Below, in pieces: positions 23,259-35,461 of a stretch of DNA of 64,000 nt. Source of the stretch: an uncultured Collinsella sp. (GTDB taxonomy: Bacteria > Actinomycetota > Coriobacteriia > Coriobacteriales > Coriobacteriaceae); assembly GCA_900541185.1 (NCBI GenBank), contig UQIQ01000001.1, positions 6,921-70,920 on the forward strand. Direction: 5' to 3'. The position numbers and the translations under genes are program-made. The notes beneath the pieces are model-generated. The model was not told where the DNA came from. It made no database searches and was given only the letters and a program-made list of their open reading frames with translations. Numbering within the stretch: position 1 is the stretch's first letter; each line of letters begins with the position of its first letter.

Positions 23259-26036
23259 ATGGCACAGGAATTCACTTTTACCGTTAACGGCGTCGAGTGC
23301 ACGACGACTCAGAACAAGCCACTGCTGCGCTATCTGCGCGACGACCTGCACATTCACTCCGCCAAGGACGGCTGCTCCGAGGGCGCCTGCGGCACCTGCA
23401 CCATTCATGTGGACGGTGCGGCCGTCAAGGCGTGCGTGCTGACCACCGCTCTTGCCGCCGGCCGCAACATCGTGACCGTTGAGGGCCTGCCCGAGGACGT
23501 GCGCGAGGCCTTTGTGTACGCCTTTGGCGCCGTGGGCGCCGTGCAGTGCGGTTTTTGCATTCCCGGCATGGTCATGGCGGGTGCGGCGCTCATCGCCGAG
23601 GACCCCGAGCCCACCGAGGAGCAGATCAAGTACGCCATTCGCGGTAACGTCTGTCGCTGCACCGGCTACAAAAAGATTATCGAGGGCATCTCGCTGGCCG
23701 CTGCGGTGCTCCGCGGCGAAAAGCAGATCGACGAGGACCTGGAGCGTGGCGACGACTACGGCGTGGGCAAGCGCGCCTTCCGTATCGACGTGCGCAAGAA
23801 GGTGCTCGGCGAGGGCAAGTATCCCGACGACATCGACGAGCTCGATCAGCCGGGCCTGACCTATGCCAGCGCCGTGCGCTCCAAGTATCCGCGCGCCCGC
23901 GTGCTCTCCATCGACACCTCCAAGGCCGAGGCCCTGCCCGGTGTGGTGGGCATCCTGCGCGCCGAGGACGTGCCGGTCAACCAGGTCGGCCACCTTATCC
24001 AGGACTGGGACGTCATGATCGCCCAGGGCGATATCACCCGCTGCGTGGGTGACGCCATCGTGCTGGTGGTTGCCGAGGACGAGGCGACGCTCGAGAAGGC
24101 CAAGAAGCTCGTAAAGATCGATTACGAGCCGCTGGAGCCCGTGCGCAACATTGTCGAGGCCAGGGCCGCCGACGCCCCGCGCCTGCACGACAGCTTCTTT
24201 GCCTTTGGCAACACGGTGGAGCTCAAGGACAACGTGTGCCAGAGCCGTCATGTGACGCGCGGTGACGCCGCCAAGGCGCTGGCCGAGAGTGCGTTTACCG
24301 TGACGCAGCGCTTTACTACGCCCTTTACCGAGCATGCCTTCTTGGAGCCCGAGTGCGCCGTGGCCTTCCCGTACAAGAACGGCGTCAAGGTGCAGTCGAC
24401 CGACCAGGGTGCTTACGACACGCGCAAAGAGTGCGCCCACATGTTTGGCTGGGACAACGAGCCCGAGCGCGTGGTCGTCGAGACCATGCTCGTGGGCGGC
24501 GGCTTTGGCGGTAAGGAGGACGTTTCGATCCAGCACCTGGCCGCGCTTGCTGCCTATAAGCTCCAGCGTCCTGTGAAGTGCAAGCTCACGCGTGCCGAGT
24601 CGCTTGCTTTTCATCCCAAGCGTCATGCCATGGACGGCACCTTTACACTGGGCTGCGACGCCGAAGGCAACTTTACCGGCCTGGATTGCGAGATCAACTT
24701 TGATACCGGCGCCTACGCGTCGCTGTGTGGCCCGGTGCTCGAGCGCGCCTGCACGCATGCCGTCGGCCCCTACAAGTACCAGAACACCGACATTCGCGGC
24801 TTTGGCTACTACACCAACAACCCGCCCGCCGGCGCGTACCGCGGCTTTGGCGTTTGCCAGTCCGAGTTTGCGCTCGAGAGCCTGATCGACTTGCTGGCAG
24901 AGAAGGTCGGCCTGGATCCGTGGGAGATTCGTTACAGAAACGCCATCGAGCCGGGCGAGGTTTTGCCCAACGGCCAGATTGCCGACTGCTCCACGGCGCT
25001 TAAGGAGACACTGCTCGAGGTCAAGGATGTCTACTATGCGCATCCCGGACACGCCGGCATCGCCTGCGCCATGAAGAATGCCGGCGTGGGCGTGGGTCTG
25101 CCCGATGCTGGCCGCTGCAAGATTCGCATCGAGAACGGCGTGGCTACGGTCTATGCCGCCACGTCCGACATCGGCCAGGGCTGCAACACCGTCTTTTTGC
25201 AGGACGTTGCCGAGGCCTGCGGTCTGCCGCTTCGTTGCATCGCCAACGGCGAGTGCTCCACCGAGAACGCTCCCGACTCCGGCACCACGTCTGGCTCGCG
25301 TCAGACGGTCGTGACCGGCGAGGCCGTGCGCGGTGCCGCCTTCCTGCTGCGCGATGCCATGCTTGACATCGAGGCCGGCAAGTCTGCGCCCGCCGCTCCC
25401 GTGAATGCGCATGGCGACGGCGTCAAGATCGAGTACGACGACGGTCGCGCCTATCAGCTGCACACGCAGGAGCTCGTCGCCGGCCAGGGTATGCATCCTC
25501 AGGATCCTGCGGCCGCCATCAAGGCGCTCGAGGGATGCGAGTTTGGCTACGTGTACCTGGAGCCGACCGACAAACTGGGCGCCGACGTTCCCAACCCCAA
25601 GAGCCACATCTGCTACGGTTTTGCCACGCATGTGGTCATTCTGGATGATGACGGTCGCGTGAGCGAGATCTATGCTGCGCACGATTCCGGCAAGGTGGTC
25701 AACCCCATCTCCATCCAGGGTCAGATCGAAGGCGGCGTGCTCATGGGTATGGGCTATGCGCTTACCGAGGACTGGCCGCTCAAGGACTGCGTGCCCCAGG
25801 CAAGGTACGGCACGCTCGGGCTGTTCCGTGCGCCCGAGATTCCGGATATCCACGCCATCTACGTGGAGAAGGACGAGCTGCTGCCTGTGGCATATGGCGG
25901 CAAGGGCATCGGCGAGATCGCAACGATCCCCACGGCGCCCGCCGTACAGAACGCCTATCGCGCATTTGACGGCAAACTGCGTCCAGATCTGCCCATGGTG
26001 GATACCCCGTACAGCCGCGCCCGTCACCGCGGGTAG
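23259..26036 (+). CDS. xdhD: XdhD-like molybdopterin hydroxylase with fused N-terminal [2Fe-2S] domains
   Basis: N-terminal CSEGACGTCT and CGFCIPG...CRCTGY 2Fe-2S motifs, followed by an aldehyde oxidase/xanthine dehydrogenase Mo-binding body (GGGFGGKE). 925 aa. Confidence 0.85.
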   Translation: MAQEFTFTVNGVECTTTQNKPLLRYLRDDLHIHSAKDGCSEGACGTCTIHVDGAAVKACVLTTALAAGRNIVTVEGLPEDVREAFVYAFGAVGAVQCGFCIPGMVMAGAALIAEDPEPTEEQIKYAIRGNVCRCTGYKKIIEGISLAAAVLRGEKQIDEDLERGDDYGVGKRAFRIDVRKKVLGEGKYPDDIDELDQPGLTYASAVRSKYPRARVLSIDTSKAEALPGVVGILRAEDVPVNQVGHLIQDWDVMIAQGDITRCVGDAIVLVVAEDEATLEKAKKLVKIDYEPLEPVRNIVEARAADAPRLHDSFFAFGNTVELKDNVCQSRHVTRGDAAKALAESAFTVTQRFTTPFTEHAFLEPECAVAFPYKNGVKVQSTDQGAYDTRKECAHMFGWDNEPERVVVETMLVGGGFGGKEDVSIQHLAALAAYKLQRPVKCKLTRAESLAFHPKRHAMDGTFTLGCDAEGNFTGLDCEINFDTGAYASLCGPVLERACTHAVGPYKYQNTDIRGFGYYTNNPPAGAYRGFGVCQSEFALESLIDLLAEKVGLDPWEIRYRNAIEPGEVLPNGQIADCSTALKETLLEVKDVYYAHPGHAGIACAMKNAGVGVGLPDAGRCKIRIENGVATVYAATSDIGQGCNTVFLQDVAEACGLPLRCIANGECSTENAPDSGTTSGSRQTVVTGEAVRGAAFLLRDAMLDIEAGKSAPAAPVNAHGDGVKIEYDDGRAYQLHTQELVAGQGMHPQDPAAAIKALEGCEFGYVYLEPTDKLGADVPNPKSHICYGFATHVVILDDDGRVSEIYAAHDSGKVVNPISIQGQIEGGVLMGMGYALTEDWPLKDCVPQARYGTLGLFRAPEIPDIHAIYVEKDELLPVAYGGKGIGEIATIPTAPAVQNAYRAFDGKLRPDLPMVDTPYSRARHRG

Positions 26037-26105: not shown

Positions 26106-26140
26106 GGCCCCAGCTCCATCGCGAGCCGGGGCCTTTTGTT
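26106..26140 (+). terminator. Intrinsic terminator after the xdhD-like gene
   Basis: GGCCCC(A)GCTC-loop-GAGC(C)GGGGCC followed by TTTTGTT. Confidence 0.7.
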
Positions 26141-26157
26141 TGGAGCGCCTCCGCATG

Positions 26158-26500
26158 CGGAAGCTGCGTCCCAGATTTCGGCTCCAGAATGGGACGTACT
26201 TTCCGGACGGGGCTTCAAACGGAAACTGTATCCCGGATTCGACGCTCAGAATGGGATGCGTTTTCCGGTAGAGGCCTCAAATGGAAAGTGTGTCCCGGAA
26301 TATGGCTCCAGCCTGGGATGCATTTTCCGGTTGAAGCCTCAAGCGGAAACTGCGTCCCGGAATTCGGTCTCGGAACGGGTCGTGCTTTCCGGATCGCCCC
26401 TCAACCGGAAGCTGTGTCCCGGAATCATGCCTCAGAATGGAACGCGCTTTCCGTTGGCGTGGCCGTTGGGAAAACACGGCCCAGATAGGGGATGCGATCC
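26158..26500 (+). repeat. 62-bp palindromic-unit minisatellite, array 1 (about 5.5 units)
   Basis: CGGAAnCTG half-sites start at 26158, 26220, 26282, 26344, 26406 and 26468 (exact 62-bp spacing). Each is followed about 30 bp later by the inverted half-site GGGAYGCGYTTTCCGG. Confidence 0.9.
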
Positions 26501-26523
26501 GGCGATGCGCGGCCTAGCAGCTC

Positions 26524-27522
26524 CTACAGGTCCACCTCGTTGAGCCATGTCGGTAGAGCGGTCTGCCGGATGCCTGCCGTCTGTAGCTTTTTGGCGAGCA
26601 CTCCTGCCGAGCGGACCTCGCTGATGGTAAAGCGCAGCAGAGGGTGACCGTAGAGCGATAGGTGCGCCTCGCGCTGTCGTTCGGCAACGAGCGCCTCGGC
26701 GGTGGTGCGTCCGGCCAGCATGGTCTGGTCGGTATATTTGATGAGCCCGTCGAGCTCGCCCAGCGTGAGTTCCCGCGCCTGGCGCTCCCAGGCAAAGTCC
26801 GTTCGTATGGGCTTGGCCGAATTGAAGGGGTCCGTCAGCTCGTATTGAAGCCAATCGGGCGCAAAGCCCGTCTCGATCATGACGGCTCGGGCGACCGATT
26901 CCCCGCCGCTCTCGGCGCGGGCGTCGGCATATCGAAGCGTTGTGAGAGCCGTACGAATCGCGCGACCATTGCGGGCAGTTGCTCGTTGCTCGACGGCCTC
27001 CATCAGCTGTTCCCGCACAAGGACGAGCTTTGAGATCGCCGAATCGGCAATGGGCATACCGTCGGCAAAACCGGTCTGCAACAGGCAATCTGTAACCGTT
27101 TGGATGGGCGGCGTTACCGATATGCTGGCTCTGCGTTTTGCTCCGGCCGGCTCAATCTGGTGCCGCTGAATATGTGCGCCCGGACGAGCCGACGGCTTGG
27201 TGGTACTGCAGACATGCACGACATTCAGGTGTCGCCACGAGACCTCGAGCCCCAGCAGACAGGCGGCCGAAAACGAGCAGAACGTCCAATCGGGGTGGAT
27301 GATCGCAAGGGCGCGGAGGATTTCGCAATGGCGTTGCGCTCGGTTGAGTTCATCCCAGCGCGTTTTTCGCGCAAACAACCCCGGCATGGGCGAGACAACC
27401 GTGCCGCCGGTGCGCCGAAGGAGCGCTTTTCGGATCGCCGTGCTCGGGGGAATCAGGCAGCGCCCCTCTTGTTCGGCTTGAGTGAGCAGTTGGTCGATGA
27501 GCTGGTCATTGCAATGGGTCAT
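26524..27522 (-). CDS. Hypothetical protein with AbiEi-antitoxin-like N-terminus and PD-(D/E)xK/DUF559-like C-terminus
   Basis: Strong GGAGG RBS. N-terminal pattern (LLRRTGGTVVSPMPGLFA...FCSFSAACLLGL) and C-terminal D..W-x10-GELDGLIKY-x-ERQRE resemble a widespread actinobacterial family. Assignment is from memory. Confidence 0.5.
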   Translation of the reverse strand: MTHCNDQLIDQLLTQAEQEGRCLIPPSTAIRKALLRRTGGTVVSPMPGLFARKTRWDELNRAQRHCEILRALAIIHPDWTFCSFSAACLLGLEVSWRHLNVVHVCSTTKPSARPGAHIQRHQIEPAGAKRRASISVTPPIQTVTDCLLQTGFADGMPIADSAISKLVLVREQLMEAVEQRATARNGRAIRTALTTLRYADARAESGGESVARAVMIETGFAPDWLQYELTDPFNSAKPIRTDFAWERQARELTLGELDGLIKYTDQTMLAGRTTAEALVAERQREAHLSLYGHPLLRFTISEVRSAGVLAKKLQTAGIRQTALPTWLNEVDL

Positions 27523-27577
27523 GAGCTACCGCCTCCTTTTGGGTAGCAAAAACGTATCAGCTGGAACTTGCCGCTCA

Positions 27578-27599
27578 GCTGACCAAAAGCTGACCAAAA
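27578..27599. repeat. Tandem 11-mer GCTGACCAAAA x2 in a divergent promoter region
   Basis: Exact direct duplication 56-77 bp upstream of the minus-strand gene start at 27522. Confidence 0.8.
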
Positions 27600-27817
27600 T
27601 CTAACCATGCAGGTAGATGACCTGCTTTTGGCGACATATTTCTTGTTTGAATCGGTGGGCGGTAATCGGCGACCGTGAACGGTAACTGGATATGAAGTCT
27701 TGGTAAGTTTCGGGACGTGTACTTTTTGAAAAAGAGCATTCTATCTGCTGTTTTGTGTTTCTGGATCGCATATTTGAAGGCATGTGATAAGGGCGGCGGA
27801 CTGTCGCCTTGTATCTG

Positions 27818-28112
27818 CGGAAACTGTGACCCGGAATTGCCACTCGGAATGGGACGCGCTTTCCGGACAGCCCTTCAAGCGGAAACTACACCCCAGATTT
27901 CGGCCTCAGAGTGGGATGCCGTTTCCAGATCGGGCCTCAAACGGAAATTGCATCCCGGAACGAGCCTTCAGAGCGGGATGAACTTTCCCAACGGGCCGCA
28001 TGCGGAAACTGTGTCCCGGAATTGCCACTCAGAACGGGACACGCTTTCCGGATGGGATGCTTGGCGGAAACTACGGCCCAGTTTTGGCTCCAGAACGGGA
28101 TGCATTTTCCGG
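27818..28112 (+). repeat. 62-bp palindromic-unit minisatellite, array 2 (about 5 units)
   Basis: CGGAAAYTG half-sites at 27818, 27880, 27942, 28003 and 28065. Same orientation and unit as array 1. Confidence 0.9.
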
Positions 28113-28167
28113 AACGGTCCACGTGCGGTGGTGTACCGCCCCTTTCGTGTGCGCCGCTTGTCGAATT

Positions 28168-28219
28168 ACGTTATAGCTAGCTATATTATAGGAAGGTATA
28201 ATATAGCTAGCTATAACGT
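28168..28219. promoter_or_regulatory. Perfect 23-bp-arm AT-rich palindrome just upstream of the ATPase gene (candidate operator or 5' hairpin)
   Basis: ACGTTATAGCTAGCTATATTATA-GGAAGG-TATAATATAGCTAGCTATAACGT. The right arm contains TATAAT. It ends 16 nt before the ATG at 28236. Confidence 0.6.
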
Positions 28220-28235
28220 AAAGGAAGGATGGTCT

Positions 28236-29627
28236 ATGTTTGTCGGAAGAACAGCGGAAATGTCCGAGCTCAATCGACTGTATGGCACGGACTCCTTTGA
28301 GATGCCTGTGATTTACGGCCGCCGTCGTGTGGGTAAAACGCGCCTTATCACAGAGTTCATCCAAGGCAAGAAGGCTATTTACTTTCAAGCTCGTCGTACC
28401 AATGCGGAGGCAAACCTGCACGGCTTTAGCCAGGCGATACTTGCAGGCTCGGTTGGTGCTGCAGGCGTGTCGTTTCGTAGTTTTGACGAGGCGTTCGATG
28501 CATTGGTCACCATGGCTCGAACGGAGCGTTTGATTGTCGTGATTGACGAGTATCCCTATCTCGCCCAATCGAATCCCGAGATCAGCTCGTTGCTGCAAGA
28601 CAAGATCGACCACTTATACAAAGAGACCAGGCTAATGCTGGTCCTATGCGGCTCGTCTCTTTCGTTTATGGAGGAACAGGTGTTGGGCTACGAGAGCCCA
28701 CTATACGGTAGGCGTACGGCCCAGTTTAAGATCATGCCGCTCGATTTTACGACGACCTTCGGGTTGTGGCAGAGCATGGGTCGCGAAGACGCTGCAGTTT
28801 GCTATGGCATGACAGGTGGCATTCCTGCATATATCGAGAAAGTCGATCCTGCCGCACCGCTCAAGGACAACATCAAACGTCTTTTTCTTACTCCTACGGG
28901 CTATCTCTTTGAGGAGCCGAGTAACCTGCTATTGCAAGAGTGCCGCAATCCCGAACAATATGATGCGATCGTACAGGCAATTGCCCAGGGACGCTCGAAG
29001 AACTCGGAGATTGCGAGCTCTACGGGAATCCCTGCGAGCAACGTAAAGAGCTATGTGGATAAGCTGGCGTCGCTTGGGATTGTCGAGCGCGAGCTGCCCC
29101 TAAACGAGACGAGCAATAAGCGAGCCGTGTATCTGCTGAGCGATCAGATGTTTAGGTTCTGGTACAAGTTTGTTCCGCAGAACATCGGGCTGATTCAAAA
29201 CGATATGGCCGCGATGGCGTATAAGCGCATTGAGCCGCATCTGTCCGACTATATGGGCGCGGTTTTTGAGCTTATCTGCCGGCAGTACGTGTACGAACTT
29301 GCGCGCGCGGGCGAGCTCGATGTGATTCCGGCAACGGTGGGCCGTTGGTGGGGAACGGACAATCGGACGCGTACGCAGGAAGAGATCGATTTGATTGTCG
29401 ACGACGGAGAGGGCGCGGCGCTCTTTGCGGAGTGCAAATGGCGTAACGAACCGGTAGGCGAGGATGTTCTGGAAAAGCTCGTGTACCGAAGCGAGCTCTT
29501 TAGGCGGCAGCATAAAAGCTACGTGATCTTCTCGAAGCGTGGCTTTACGCAAAGATGTCAGGAAGCTGCGGCGAGCAGGGGAGATGCCAAGCTGATTTCG
29601 TTTGCCGAGATGTGTGAGCGGAGATAA
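28236..29627 (+). CDS. AAA+ ATPase of the 'archaeal ATPase' + DUF234 type
   Basis: FVGRTAEMSELNRLYGTDSFEMPVIYGRRRVGKTRLITEF (Walker A) and VVIDEYPYL (Walker B), plus a C-terminal DUF234-like region. AAGGAAGGA RBS. The 27717 ORF extension through the repeats was rejected. Confidence 0.85.
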   Translation: MFVGRTAEMSELNRLYGTDSFEMPVIYGRRRVGKTRLITEFIQGKKAIYFQARRTNAEANLHGFSQAILAGSVGAAGVSFRSFDEAFDALVTMARTERLIVVIDEYPYLAQSNPEISSLLQDKIDHLYKETRLMLVLCGSSLSFMEEQVLGYESPLYGRRTAQFKIMPLDFTTTFGLWQSMGREDAAVCYGMTGGIPAYIEKVDPAAPLKDNIKRLFLTPTGYLFEEPSNLLLQECRNPEQYDAIVQAIAQGRSKNSEIASSTGIPASNVKSYVDKLASLGIVERELPLNETSNKRAVYLLSDQMFRFWYKFVPQNIGLIQNDMAAMAYKRIEPHLSDYMGAVFELICRQYVYELARAGELDVIPATVGRWWGTDNRTRTQEEIDLIVDDGEGAALFAECKWRNEPVGEDVLEKLVYRSELFRRQHKSYVIFSKRGFTQRCQEAAASRGDAKLISFAEMCERR

Positions 29628-29647
29628 CCAAGCGCTCTGATGTGATG

Positions 29648-29935
29648 CTCGGAATGGGACGTGCTTTCCGGATCGCCCCTCAAGCGGAAGCTGCGTCCCG
29701 GATTCTGGCTCCAGAGTGGGATACCGTTTCCGGTTGAGGTCTCTGGCGGAAGCTGTATCCCGGAATCGAGCTTCAGAGTGGGACGTGCTTTCCCGTCAGG
29801 AGCTCAAGTGGAGACTGCGTCCCGGGCTCATGCCTCGGAATGGGACGTGCTTTCCGGATGGGCTTCAAGCGGAAACTGTGTCCCAGAATCGACATGGCTT
29901 CAAGTGGAAAGCGCGTCTCAGAATGCCGCGCCGGC
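29648..29935 (+). repeat. 62-bp palindromic-unit minisatellite, array 3 (about 5 units, last unit truncated)
   Basis: Half-sites at 29685, 29747, 29809 and 29870, then a 35-bp truncated unit at 29905. The array starts 20 nt after the ATPase stop. Confidence 0.9.
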
Positions 29936-30485
29936 GTTTTTAGCGGTCGTGGTTGGAAAGGGAAGCATTGCCTACACACGTGACGACGGCGTGGCGGTGA
30001 TCCCCATGGCGGCACTTGGGGCGTAGTGGTTTTGCGGGCGTGCCGTGCTTCCTTTACCGAAAATCCATTTGGTAAACTAGATGCTCGCGGATAGAATAAA
30101 GTTGACGGCAGCCCAAGTGGTGAAGAGCTGGGCAGCGCCGTTGCTTGGTCAAGAGGTCAGTGCCTTAATGGCAGCGACTTGTTATGCTTCGAATGCTGCT
30201 TGAGTGCCTCGGAAAGTTCGATAAGCGCCGTGAAGAGCAAGACCAAAGCAACCAAGAGCTCTACGAGCTCTGATGGGCCCGGGATGACCGCTGATTCAAG
30301 TCACCGGGCCTAAATCTTTTTCATGCATTTGAATAGAGCGGTCGACTCTCTTGGGGCCGTCTGCATGGCGTGTGCTTGGCGCATGGTATATTGCGTCCCG
30401 CTTTCATGTCCGCACGGGTTCCTATCCTTACGGCAATGTAGCCGCCTATGTAACGAGCGGCAGTTGACGGAGAAAGGCCCTGACC

Positions 30486-35244: not shown

Positions 35245-35461
35245 ACGGACTCCTTTCATCGATGTTGGCAGGGCCACCGTGCCTCTTGGCCGGTTGGCGT
35301 CGGGATCGTGGAGCCAACTCTCTACCCCGACTCTGGATAAAACGCGCCCGCTGCTTGCGGGCACGATGGAGTCTATCAGCACGCGCGGACAAAAATCAAC
35401 CCCGTGCGGCAATGAGCGCACGGGGTTGATCTGGTCTACGACCCTCAGTTTTCGGCATCTG

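Follow-up and report, generated by a model that had tools for sequence, protein, structure and literature searches.

The window, by which we mean the whole 64,000-nucleotide stretch of Collinsella DNA that was analysed, contains three arrays of a palindromic tandem repeat, situated beside and between the genes that follow xdh, the conserved anchor of the locus. The features are as follows.

23259–26036, + strand: xdh, molybdopterin xanthine dehydrogenase-like gene (Pfam MoCoBD_1/2, Fer2_2, Ald_Xan_dh_C)
26107–26140, + strand: xdh intrinsic terminator, GGCCCCAGCTC..GAGCCGGGGCC then TTTTGTTT, preceding array 1 (read from the sequence)
26151–26455, + strand: array 1, five 62-bp units (nhmmer, TRF, repeat search)
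26524–27522, − strand: gene for a 332-aa protein (X332) of a large uncharacterised family
27816–28116, + strand: array 2, five units (nhmmer, TRF, repeat search)
28166–28221, no strand: perfect A+T-rich inverted repeat of 25 nt containing TATAAT-like boxes, 15 nt ahead of the ATPase start (repeat search)
28236–29627, + strand: ATPase_2 + wHTH + DUF234 gene, 463 aa (Pfam; PADLOC PDC-S27, E 7.7e-61)
29641–29912, + strand: array 3, half unit, three full units and a partial unit (nhmmer, TRF, repeat search)
29913–30026, + strand: AAA_14/DUF4143 ATPase remnant, last 37 codons (tblastn, 97% identity to residues 395–431 of the L009 protein)

The 3′ ends of the xdh gene (stop 26036) and the 332-aa gene (stop 26524) flank array 1. 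Array 2 occupies the divergent 5′ region of the 332-aa and ATPase genes, upstream of the predicted ATPase promoter. Array 3 starts 14 nt past the ATPase stop (29627), and its first element is a half unit whose B arm is at 29656. This layout agrees with the preliminary description of the locus, which had placed arrays 1 and 3 at gene 3′ ends and array 2 in a shared 5′ region; the xdh terminator at approximately 26107–26140 is an addition. The terminator is absent from the consensus scan because its loop exceeds the length allowed there, and the terminator-before-array arrangement was also observed in L039, L136 and the L040 context. The ‘truncated 35-bp unit’ described at 29905 does show a spacing of 35, but it runs into the DUF4143 ATPase gene remnant that the end of array 3 abuts.

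Genes of the xdh-adjacent island

In C. aerofaciens, the PGAP name for xdh is ‘selenium-dependent xanthine dehydrogenase’. The 332-aa protein has no match in Pfam or NCBIfam and a weak PADLOC match to AbiEi, and its N-terminus is possibly AbiEi-like. Its family has 3317 representatives. The residues D160, E208, D242, E256 and K262 are invariant, and the motif is PD-(D/E)xK nuclease-like. Foldseek with the AF2 model (pLDDT 93.4) gave weak matches only, mostly to nucleases and all with E>0.2. The DUF234 ATPase gene is a candidate defence gene. The 25-nt inverted repeat in front of it, where a promoter-like site is predicted at 28158–28187, is kept at 87% identity even in genomes devoid of the ATPase; it is likely to be a promoter/operator and does not belong to the repeat family. 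The AAA_14/DUF4143 ATPase is full-length in other strains, as indicated by Pfam hits on the L009 protein.

The 332-aa and ATPase genes belong to a variable island beside xdh that is decaying; its genes encode the 332-aa nuclease-like protein, two ATPases (DUF234 and DUF4143) and SIMPL proteins. Contrary to the earlier view of arrays bracketing two divergent genes, the pair is not specifically framed as a unit. Other genomes contain other cassettes at this place, or none.

Architecture and pairing of the repeat unit

TRF found a period of 62 at 26180–26453 (4.4 copies), 27817–28050 (3.8) and 29655–29892 (3.9), with 67–72% matches, and the repeat search gave start-to-start spacings of 62,62,62,62 in array 1, 62,62,61,62 in array 2 and 62,62,61,35 in array 3, which bore out the three same-strand arrays with a period of about 62 bp at the coordinates first reported. 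The units of array 1 run in the order A arm, linker 1, B arm, linker 2, and degenerate arm remnants extend downstream of it as far as approximately 26500. All 11 matches of an A half-site pattern in the window were on the + strand and within the three arrays (0 matches in shuffled sequence), and nhmmer with the unit HMM showed no further units in the 64-kb window outside them. An assembly artefact, by collapse or expansion, is excluded because a 4301-bp region including the arrays is 100% identical across four independently assembled contigs (L002, L003, L007 and L008).

In each 62-bp unit a 14–15-nt box, (C)GGAAA-N5-TCCC, is accompanied by GGGA-N5-TTTCC(G), its reverse complement; as first described, the B half approximates the reverse complement of the A half. 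Linker 1 (18 nt) and linker 2 (13 nt) alternate between the A and B boxes. Both contain GGCCTCA in direct orientation, a motif missed in the preliminary description, and the layout GGCCTCA / box / GGAWT is common to the two half-units in direct orientation. In 198 distinct units, GGAAA, TCCC, GGGA and TTTCC are conserved at 99–100% and G61/C1/C2/C4 at 82–100%, whereas the positions neighbouring the invariant blocks are 20–45% variable. Over all loci, 99% of the 534 unit steps measure 61 or 62 bp; the period once called strictly 62 bp is so in 82% of the steps and 61 in 17%. Linker lengths stay rigid despite a sequence divergence of about 30%. Strong constraint acts on the boxes, the linker motif and the 61–62 bp spacing, whereas the box centres drift, and the invariance of blocks and spacing across about 200 distinct units points to continuing selection or a recognition requirement rather than neutral decay.

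The consensus 15-nt arms form 13 Watson-Crick pairs, 1 G-U pair and 1 mismatch. Within the window, one register yields 143 Watson-Crick pairs, 27 G-U pairs and 25 mismatches and the other 140, 27 and 28, confirming that two alternative pairing registers are equally available. The strings of hairpins proposed for the arrays can thus pair in two registers, but the five central stem positions vary independently: neither register showed covariation there, and pairing at these variable positions was 0.599 and 0.565 as against 0.616 and 0.577 with permuted partners. At the sequence level, the conserved features are blocks and spacing. G-U exceeded A-C by 314:121 and 264:131, and sense-strand RNA gave folding energies of −156.7 and −150.1 kcal/mol (z −5.6 and −4.3), compared with −132.5 and −119.0 kcal/mol (z −3.5 and −2.8) for the antisense strand. 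U-tracts are absent from the array hairpins.

These data bear on the possibility, which we consider unlikely, that the arrays are phased double-stranded DNA binding sites coated by a putative Collinsella protein, hairpin potential being a by-product. Such a protein might be associated with the nucleoid, act as an insulator or topological barrier, or resemble gyrase as in BIME-2. Each arm has a dyad GGA-N7-TCC, and along the array these sites follow one another at 29–33 bp, or about three helical turns, alternating in polarity beside GGCCTCA; the invariant blocks surround a free N5 centre without compensatory change, and the rigid linkers and the direct layout common to the half-units fit as well, as does the position of array 2 between divergent promoters and of some arrays past terminators, where transcription is unlikely. 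However, the 62-bp period corresponds to 5.9 helical turns, a non-integer, no candidate binding protein was found, and a near-symmetric duplex site predicts neither the sense-strand G-U excess nor a strong transcription polarity, although a directional GGCCTCA box could rescue the model on this point.

Distribution and variation of the repeats

A pattern scan of 185,579 species genomes matched at least 120 stretches, nearly all of them from Collinsella among the matches listed. The unit HMM found arrays of 1–7 units in 134 of the 134 fetched loci, again nearly all Collinsella. About 80 of these represent the syntenic xdh locus; by their flanks, the remaining 44 make up at least 8 more clusters, whose neighbouring genes are unrelated (GH5, Na/H exchanger, signal peptidase, Ser/Thr kinase, sulfatase, xylose-isomerase-like and ArsC), giving at least 9 distinct genomic contexts in total. 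One 0.9-Mb piece of a C. aerofaciens chromosome has 8 array places, and the arrays in the loci examined are all between genes. The occurrence in many Collinsella genomes and contexts shows a repeat family and not a local duplication. As no named family had been recognised in the preliminary description, so cmscan gave no Rfam match to the unit even at E<=10, and the repeat had no match in phage or viral collections. The arrays thus constitute a new BIME-like extragenic palindromic family, apparently undescribed, whose tandem repeats are dispersed in Collinsella at low copy number.

It is very improbable that the arrays are locus-specific regulators or partners of the island genes, for example a type III antitoxin-like repeat RNA for the ATPase or REP-like substrates of the 332-aa protein. 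RAYT genes are flanked by REPs, and in most genomes inverted arrays flank the 332-aa gene, the product of which has the conserved PD-(D/E)xK-like motif; the densest array cluster is at the xdh island, and array 2 lies upstream of the ATPase gene and is co-oriented with it. Against this, at least 8 unrelated array loci lack the 332-aa and ATPase genes, strain TSDC17.2-1.1 retains arrays even though neither gene is present in its xdh island, and no such arrays occur near a homologue of the 332-aa protein with 47% identity. The ATPase shows no similarity to type III toxins, and its predicted promoter is downstream of array 2. In type III toxin-antitoxin (ToxIN-like) systems a tandem repeat array directly precedes, and is co-transcribed with, a gene for an endoribonuclease toxin. 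Such an RNA is largely refuted, the downstream gene being ATPase_2/DUF234, the promoter following the array and the repeats recurring at unrelated loci.

Orthologous arrays have 0–7 units in different genomes, and array 1 is only 82% identical, with indels, between strains whose genes are 96–99% identical. Open reading frames across the arrays cannot be genes, as the preliminary description had held, because orthologous arrays differ by whole units and 62 is no multiple of 3. Comparison with L039 showed that the window lost an inverted (−) array at array 1 through an arm-to-arm deletion involving two GGGAYGYGYTTTCCG arms in direct orientation; L129 and L098 have hybrid array 2/array 3 junctions, and strain TSDC17.2-1.1 carries an IS3-family insertion within a B arm (a single case). 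Array length changes quickly through gain and loss of units, and deletions as well as one IS insertion have their end points in the arrays.

This variability would also fit a selfish or neutral minisatellite without cis function, seeded by a putative mobilising activity, expanded by replication slippage, persisting only where harmless (at gene 3′ ends) and mattering solely because deletions and insertions arise from it. Hypervariable unit number, low copy number and the deletion end points and IS insertion in the arms are in line with such an origin, and purifying selection against insertions would likewise yield convergent/3′ enrichment and promoter avoidance. Yet the four blocks and their spacing are near-invariant over about 200 distinct units next to the far more variable positions, and the orientation bias reported below (16:1) requires an extra assumption. 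We regard this explanation as unlikely.

Array orientation and the proposed role at gene 3′ ends

At the 17 junctions counted between a gene 3′ end and an array, 16 were co-oriented and 1 opposite; the counts come from GC3-based ORF calls rather than curated annotation, and common ancestry of some contexts is possible. Seven of 13 contexts were convergent, 5 tandem and 1 divergent. All 7 convergent contexts had a co-oriented array beside at least one gene 3′ end, and 6 of the 7 a head-to-head pair of a + and then a − array. The directional GGCCTCA in both linkers confers a polarity on the array, and this polarity follows the transcription of the gene whose 3′ end the array adjoins.

We infer a cis function at gene 3′ ends, and consider it about an even chance (probability approximately 0.5) that the arrays are Collinsella-wide repeats of BIME-2 architecture acting there in cis. 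The sense strand of read-through or 3′-UTR transcripts would form strings of G-U-containing hairpins, which may impede exonucleases as well as transcription entering the neighbouring, often convergent, gene. Impediment of both kinds has been shown for REP/BIME elements in E. coli. As DNA, the direct and inverted arms would make the arrays recombination-prone, which would help to explain the variability of the xdh-adjacent island that the arrays cut up. PMC3733652 and PMC3479197 link REPs to mRNA stabilisation, termination and supercoiling.

Several observations speak against a cis RNA role. Neither hairpin register is backed by covariation, and the hairpins lack U-tracts. A canonical terminator is ahead of the array in at least two contexts (the window, 26107–26140, and L040), so that only read-through RNA would include the array, and array 2, between divergent promoters, may be wholly untranscribed. 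Classical REPs are far more numerous than the arrays, which number about 8 in the 0.9-Mb chromosome piece scanned.

The likeness to BIME-2 noted previously, i.e. alternating orientation and two linkers, was confirmed: the boxes are extragenic imperfect palindromes in strict alternation with two alternating linkers, they form tandem clusters of variable length, and they are located at gene 3′ ends and between convergent genes. IS1397 and ISKpn1 target PUs, and the one IS3-family insertion in a unit recalls them. Unlike BIME-2, the Collinsella boxes are 14–15 nt with a free 5-nt centre instead of 35–40-nt palindromes, occupy about 8 loci per 0.9 Mb in the chromosome piece scanned instead of hundreds per genome, have one direct motif common to the linkers, and occur in an actinobacterium (Coriobacteriia); BIME-2 units are enterobacterial Y/Z2 PU sequences that bind gyrase or IHF, and there is no sequence similarity to the Collinsella consensus as judged by inspection. 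No RAYT was found in the window or the fetched loci, nor do the repeats have a GTAG or CGTC tag, one of which, according to PMC3733652, is conserved at one foot of the REP palindrome. The 61-column consensus contains no GTAG or CTAC, and CGTC only across the variable columns 17–18.

MIRUs are mycobacterial tandem units of about 50–100 bp at a few tens of intergenic loci, with strain-variable number and an orientation following the flanking genes. The Collinsella arrays share the actinobacterial host, tandem units, strain-variable unit number and orientation. MIRUs, of 46–101 bp, are, however, non-palindromic and situated inside operons, where their small ORFs are coupled to the genes on either side by overlapping the stop and start codons, whereas the Collinsella period is no multiple of three and no ORF is conserved; sequence similarity is lacking. 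A MIRU minisatellite is ruled out by the palindromic units and by the frame lost through a variable number of 62-bp units. A CRISPR array, with identical repeats around unique spacers, is also ruled out, the linkers being conserved between units with GGCCTCA in common and no CRISPR-DR family matching. Collinsella-1 RNA (RF01700; Weinberg et al. 2010, PMC2864571), which shares the genus and the origin in human-gut metagenomes, is unrelated to the array unit in sequence and structure, and was ruled out by the negative cmscan at E<=10 and by its published alignment.

REPs are imperfect palindromes of 20–40 bp outside genes, dispersed in tens to hundreds of copies per genome; the Collinsella units agree in palindrome and position, and are dispersed over at least 9 contexts. 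REPINs occur with a RAYT transposase in Pseudomonas and E. coli (PMC3116915, PMC3337134). The Collinsella repeats resemble REPINs in having two inverted short repeats with a short spacer as a hairpin-capable doublet, higher-order tandem clusters and lineage specificity; they differ in being apparently low-copy and almost only in strict tandem arrays, not dispersed doublets, and no Y1/HUH transposase was found beside any of approximately 135 array loci. Consistent with the preliminary description, tblastn with a Collinsella IS200 TnpA query detected no Y1 transposase in the window either, and no dedicated transposase for the repeats was found in the window or the fetched loci. A distinctly unlikely reading is that the arrays are recognition platforms of a Collinsella-specific system outside REP/RAYT, on which strictly phased GGAAA-N5-TCCC boxes and the directional GGCCTCA, bound as DNA or RNA by a putative protein, would mark or insulate gene 3′ ends and serve as landing sites for cassettes and IS elements; it is conceivable that the HTH/PD-(D/E)xK-like 332-aa family is a partner or mobilising enzyme of the arrays. 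If true, this would amount to a RAYT-independent route to making and using REP-like repeats. The lone tnpA seen, in L135, has its own unrelated end hairpins.

Anatomy of the arrays

The preliminary description had proposed three same-orientation arrays of a repeat with a 62-bp period, and this was confirmed by Tandem Repeats Finder, by the repeat spacings and by a half-site scan against shuffled sequence. Tandem Repeats Finder gave period 62 at 26180-26453, 27817-28050 and 29655-29892 with 67-72% matches, and scored a period of 124 in array 1 too. In the repeat search, the unit starts were spaced by 62, 62, 62 and 62 bp in array 1, by 62, 62, 61 and 62 bp in array 2, and by 62, 62, 61 and 35 bp in array 3. 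The A half-site pattern (up to three mismatches) had 11 matches, all on the + strand and within the arrays, and none in shuffled sequence; a unit HMM built from 13 units had no match in the 64-kb window outside the three arrays. The arrays and their neighbours are listed below.

Features of the array region (window coordinates, strand, feature)
23259-26036, +, xdh, a molybdopterin xanthine-dehydrogenase-like gene, named xdh by PGAP in C. aerofaciens
~26107-26140, +, canonical terminator of xdh as read from the sequence, preceding array 1
26151-26455, +, array 1
26524-27522, -, X332, gene for a 332-aa protein with a weak AbiEi-type PADLOC match
27577-27607, short tandem repeat AGCTGACCAAA x2.8, upstream of X332 in an A+T-rich region (47% G+C)
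27816-28116, +, array 2
28166-28221, no strand assigned, perfect 25-nt A+T-rich inverted repeat (TTACGTTATAGCTAGCTATATTATA, loop GGAAGG, complement)
28236-29627, +, ATPase_2/wHTH/DUF234 gene (the ATPase gene), matching PADLOC defence candidate PDC-S27
29641-29912, +, array 3
29913-30026, +, remnant of an AAA_14/DUF4143 ATPase gene (its last 37 codons), with 97% identity to the 431-aa gene that is intact in L009, an array locus from another genome
30486-31220, RNase T/KapD-like exonuclease gene

Each unit consists of an A arm (CGGAAACTGYGTCCC), an 18-nt linker, a B arm (GGGAYGCGCTTTCCG) that is approximately the reverse complement of the A arm, and a 13-nt linker. The results bore out the suggestion that the arms can pair in two alternative registers, and the two proved equally good: over the window arrays, pairing of A with the next B gave 143 Watson-Crick pairs, 27 G-U pairs and 25 mismatches, and pairing of B with the next A gave 140, 27 and 28, respectively. 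The 4301-bp array region showed 100% identity across four metagenome contigs that had been assembled independently (L002, L003, L007 and L008), which excluded the assembly error considered in the preliminary description. The arrays explain some contig breaks in assemblies, and ORFs and CRISPR-like calls over them are spurious annotations.

Distribution and classification of the repeat family

Collinsella is among the most prevalent actinobacterial genera of the human gut, and to our knowledge its non-coding genome has hardly been explored. When one genome from each of 185,579 species was scanned with an exact pattern, at least 120 stretches were returned, and nearly all among the matches listed were from Collinsella isolates or MAGs. 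In each of the 134 array loci fetched, the unit HMM detected arrays with 1-7 units, so that the repeat is a family with further loci, as had been supposed. About 80 of these loci represented one syntenic xdh locus with the order Fer4 gene, xdh (+), array (+), usually an inverted array (-), X332 (-), array (+), ATPase gene (+), array (+) and RNase T gene. The 44 remaining loci fell into at least 8 flank clusters with unrelated neighbours, among them a Tad/DUF192 operon with a GH5 gene, a Na/H exchanger, a signal peptidase, a Ser/Thr kinase, a sulfatase, a xylose-isomerase-like gene and an arsenate reductase. Eight array places were found in the 0.9-Mb C. aerofaciens record NZ_OY725717.1. The family is real, reproducible and genus-wide in Collinsella. 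It appears to be undescribed so far; the literature searched gave no relevant account of REP-type repeats for Collinsella or Coriobacteriia, which, given the incomplete coverage of that search, is absence of evidence only.

The record NZ_OY725717.1 is listed as 'plasmid 6' (899,693 bp), and its positions 1-50000 carry recA, ftsK, scpAB, der, lexA and rny; it is therefore a piece of chromosome mislabelled as a plasmid. A phage, plasmid or virus origin of the repeat was rejected, as there was no match in phage or viral collections and this mislabelled record was the sole 'plasmid' match. The repeat was also present in two bins labelled Treponemataceae (L043) and Acutalibacteraceae (L058), the flanks of which clustered with the Collinsella contexts of loci L017 and L032; judged by these flanks, both are probably mis-binned Collinsella contigs.

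We know of hardly any studies of REP/BIME-like elements outside Proteobacteria, in which RAYT transposases account for how they spread. The alternating orientation with two linkers matches the architecture of BIME-2, as the preliminary description had noted, and its statement that the window holds no REP-associated Y1 transposase was upheld and extended: a search for RAYT/Y1 transposases around all fetched array loci found none near any array. An IS200 copy lay 3.5 kb from one array and had its own hairpins. Other features that define REPs were likewise lacking or uncertain: the GTAG or CGTC tag that belongs to the REP definition (PMC3733652) was not found in the unit consensus, and the copy number is low (8 places per 0.9 Mb). 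Actinobacteria go unmentioned in the 2013 REP survey. Being palindromic and without coupled ORFs, the repeat is not a MIRU, and it is not a CRISPR, because its linkers are conserved between units. The earlier remark that no named family could be recognised also stood, since Rfam gave no match to the arrays at gathering thresholds over the whole window, and chance miRNA/snoRNA noise alone at E<=10 over the array region. The published Collinsella-1 motif was considered and rejected, its alignment being unrelated and the Rfam search at E<=10 without a match. The sole Rfam family in the window was an unrelated SAM riboswitch (RF00162) at 35253-35343 (-), at 45.1 bits barely over the gathering score.

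We have filed the repeat as of the REP/BIME-like kind. It behaves as a BIME cluster does, but its REP/RAYT membership is not established. It has some unusual traits, namely a strict period, a directional motif shared by the linkers, a pronounced polarity linked to transcription and the lack of a transposase near any array.

Constraint, polarity and a possible role at gene 3' ends

Conservation was scored over 198 distinct units. The blocks GGAAA, TCCC, GGGA and TTTCC were 99-100% conserved, the linker 2 positions G61, C1, C2 and C4 82-100%, and their linker 1 counterparts C35, G37 and A38 about 90%. GGCCTCA is present in both linkers in direct orientation, and the unit can therefore also be described as two direct half-repeats of ~31 bp with a flipped core box. 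Every arm contains the dyad GGA-N7-TCC, the five positions at the centre of each arm are variable (major allele 57-84%), and of 534 unit steps, 82% were 62 bp and 17% were 61 bp long. Covariation was absent: pairing equalled the expectation under independence in per-column contingency tables, and permutation on de-replicated arm pairs (25-162 pairs) showed no excess in either register. In the largest set (197 arm pairs), pairing was 0.599 vs 0.616 permuted and 0.565 vs 0.577 permuted. The B/linker 2/A register had a slight raw excess (p=0.013) that was gone after de-replication, and neither register was supported. Thus, since blocks and spacing are conserved, arm centres vary and covariation is absent, selection visibly acts on sequence blocks and spacing and not demonstrably on a continuous stem. 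This block invariance is difficult to square with a purely selfish minisatellite. The main rival explanation is that the arrays are phased double-stranded DNA binding sites for some protein, and the invariant blocks, free centre and fixed spacing all favour it.

Array orientation was called from the GGCCTCA motif and genes from GC3-filtered calls, with other analyses of the loci added. At junctions between a gene 3' end and an array, 16 arrays were co-oriented with the gene and one, a single unit in locus L032, was opposed. Seven of the 13 contexts were convergent gene pairs, six of them with array (+) followed by array (-), head to head; the seventh (L132) had + arrays on both sides and a weak - match only. 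The arrangement was tandem in five contexts and divergent only at array 2 of the xdh locus. On the sense strand, G-U exceeded A-C oppositions (314:121 and 264:131). This strand was also the better RNA folder of the two, the predicted folding energies of sense vs antisense strands being -156.7 vs -132.5 kcal/mol for array 1 and -150.1 vs -119.0 kcal/mol for array 3. For the most part the G-U excess follows from the consensus itself and is therefore not independent evidence per array; the orientation rule, unlike it, is independent evidence.

The best-supported reading is that the arrays are a BIME-like extragenic palindromic family acting in cis at gene 3' ends. What the analysis demonstrates is anatomy, distribution, constraint, polarity and dynamics; from the polarity, the strand asymmetry and the analogy with REP/BIME (PMC3733652, PMC3479197), we infer a role at the RNA level. 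Strings of hairpins on the sense strand would act in cis where genes end, shielding 3' ends and curbing read-through into convergent neighbours, and the repeated arms favour deletions and draw insertions. Three points count against the RNA role: canonical terminators lie ahead of the arrays in two contexts, array 2 is probably untranscribed, and covariation is absent. A BIME architecture with marked polarity, lacking the tag and with no RAYT near any array, makes the family a test case for whether a cis function at gene 3' ends is what maintains such repeats.

Dynamics of the xdh island and its genes

Unit counts at orthologous arrays were 1-7 on the xdh side, 0-5 in the inverted array, 0-6 in array 2 and 0-5 in array 3. 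This range (0-7 in closely related genomes) suits the arrays as strain-typing markers of the MIRU-VNTR kind. Array 1 was only 82% identical, with indels, between strains of 96-99% gene identity. The window has lost its inverted array through a deletion that ran from one arm to another in direct orientation. Some ATPase-less genomes (L129, L098) had array 2/array 3 hybrids; as a general route of ATPase loss, array-array recombination was rejected, as it held only for some genomes such as these, and L044, L055 and L112 lost the gene through internal deletions, with promoter and gene fragments left behind. The DUF4143 ATPase remnant is joined to the end of array 3, and other genomes had full or truncated (208-aa and 167-aa) DUF4143 ATPase genes, or SIMPL genes, 3' of this array.

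In C. aerofaciens TSDC17.2-1.1, an IS3-family element starts inside one B arm in the array on the xdh side (…GAGTGGGA / GGGGGTGCGGACAG…; L136 10160-10225, corresponding to NZ_OY725717.1 ~496160-496225), and the rest of the island is replaced by IS21 copies, an AbiEi/AbiEii pair and another ATPase. This single case recalls enterobacterial BIMEs, in which the IS3-family elements IS1397 and ISKpn1 target PUs. Another locus (L116, 8 kb fetched) kept the head-to-head array pair beside xdh and lacked X332, the ATPase gene and the RNase T gene. Thus, the island is variable and defence-flavoured, the arrays form its stable framework and are recombinogenic themselves, and this decaying island of defence-type ATPases shows them shaping local gene content.

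The X332 protein had no match in Pfam or NCBIfam. Its family (3317 representatives at 50% clustering) is uncharacterised, has no Pfam model, and in the family alignment has invariant D160, E208, D242, E256 and K262 in a PD-(D/E)xK-like pattern, D...E...D...E-x-D-G-x-x-K. The AF2 model, of very high confidence (pLDDT 93.4), gave weak Foldseek matches, mostly to nucleases, and no significant match to a solved structure. Taken together, the family search, the alignment, the model and the Foldseek matches suggest a PD-(D/E)xK-like fold, and this may be an uncharacterised family of HTH + PD-(D/E)xK nucleases. Locus-specific readings, in which the arrays encode a type III-like antitoxin RNA or are substrates of the nuclease-like X332 protein, are largely excluded, because arrays occur at unrelated loci, persist without the X332 and ATPase genes, and are lacking from the locus of a distant X332 homologue. 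X332 as the enzyme of the repeat was rejected on this last point and on the non-significant structural match, despite the suggested fold.

The inverted repeat at 28166-28221 includes boxes resembling TATAAT and a 15-bp motif in tandem (x3), lies 15 nt ahead of the ATPase start codon and retains 87% identity even in genomes with the ATPase gene deleted. It is likely an autoregulatory operator/promoter. The AGCTGACCAAA tandem repeat may likewise be part of the X332 promoter or operator. At L009 3485-3582, the intact DUF4143 ATPase gene is closely preceded by another, distinct tandem repeat (23 bp x 4.3, TTACGCCATTTTCAATGTAGTTT), which may be an operator array of the DUF4143 cassette.
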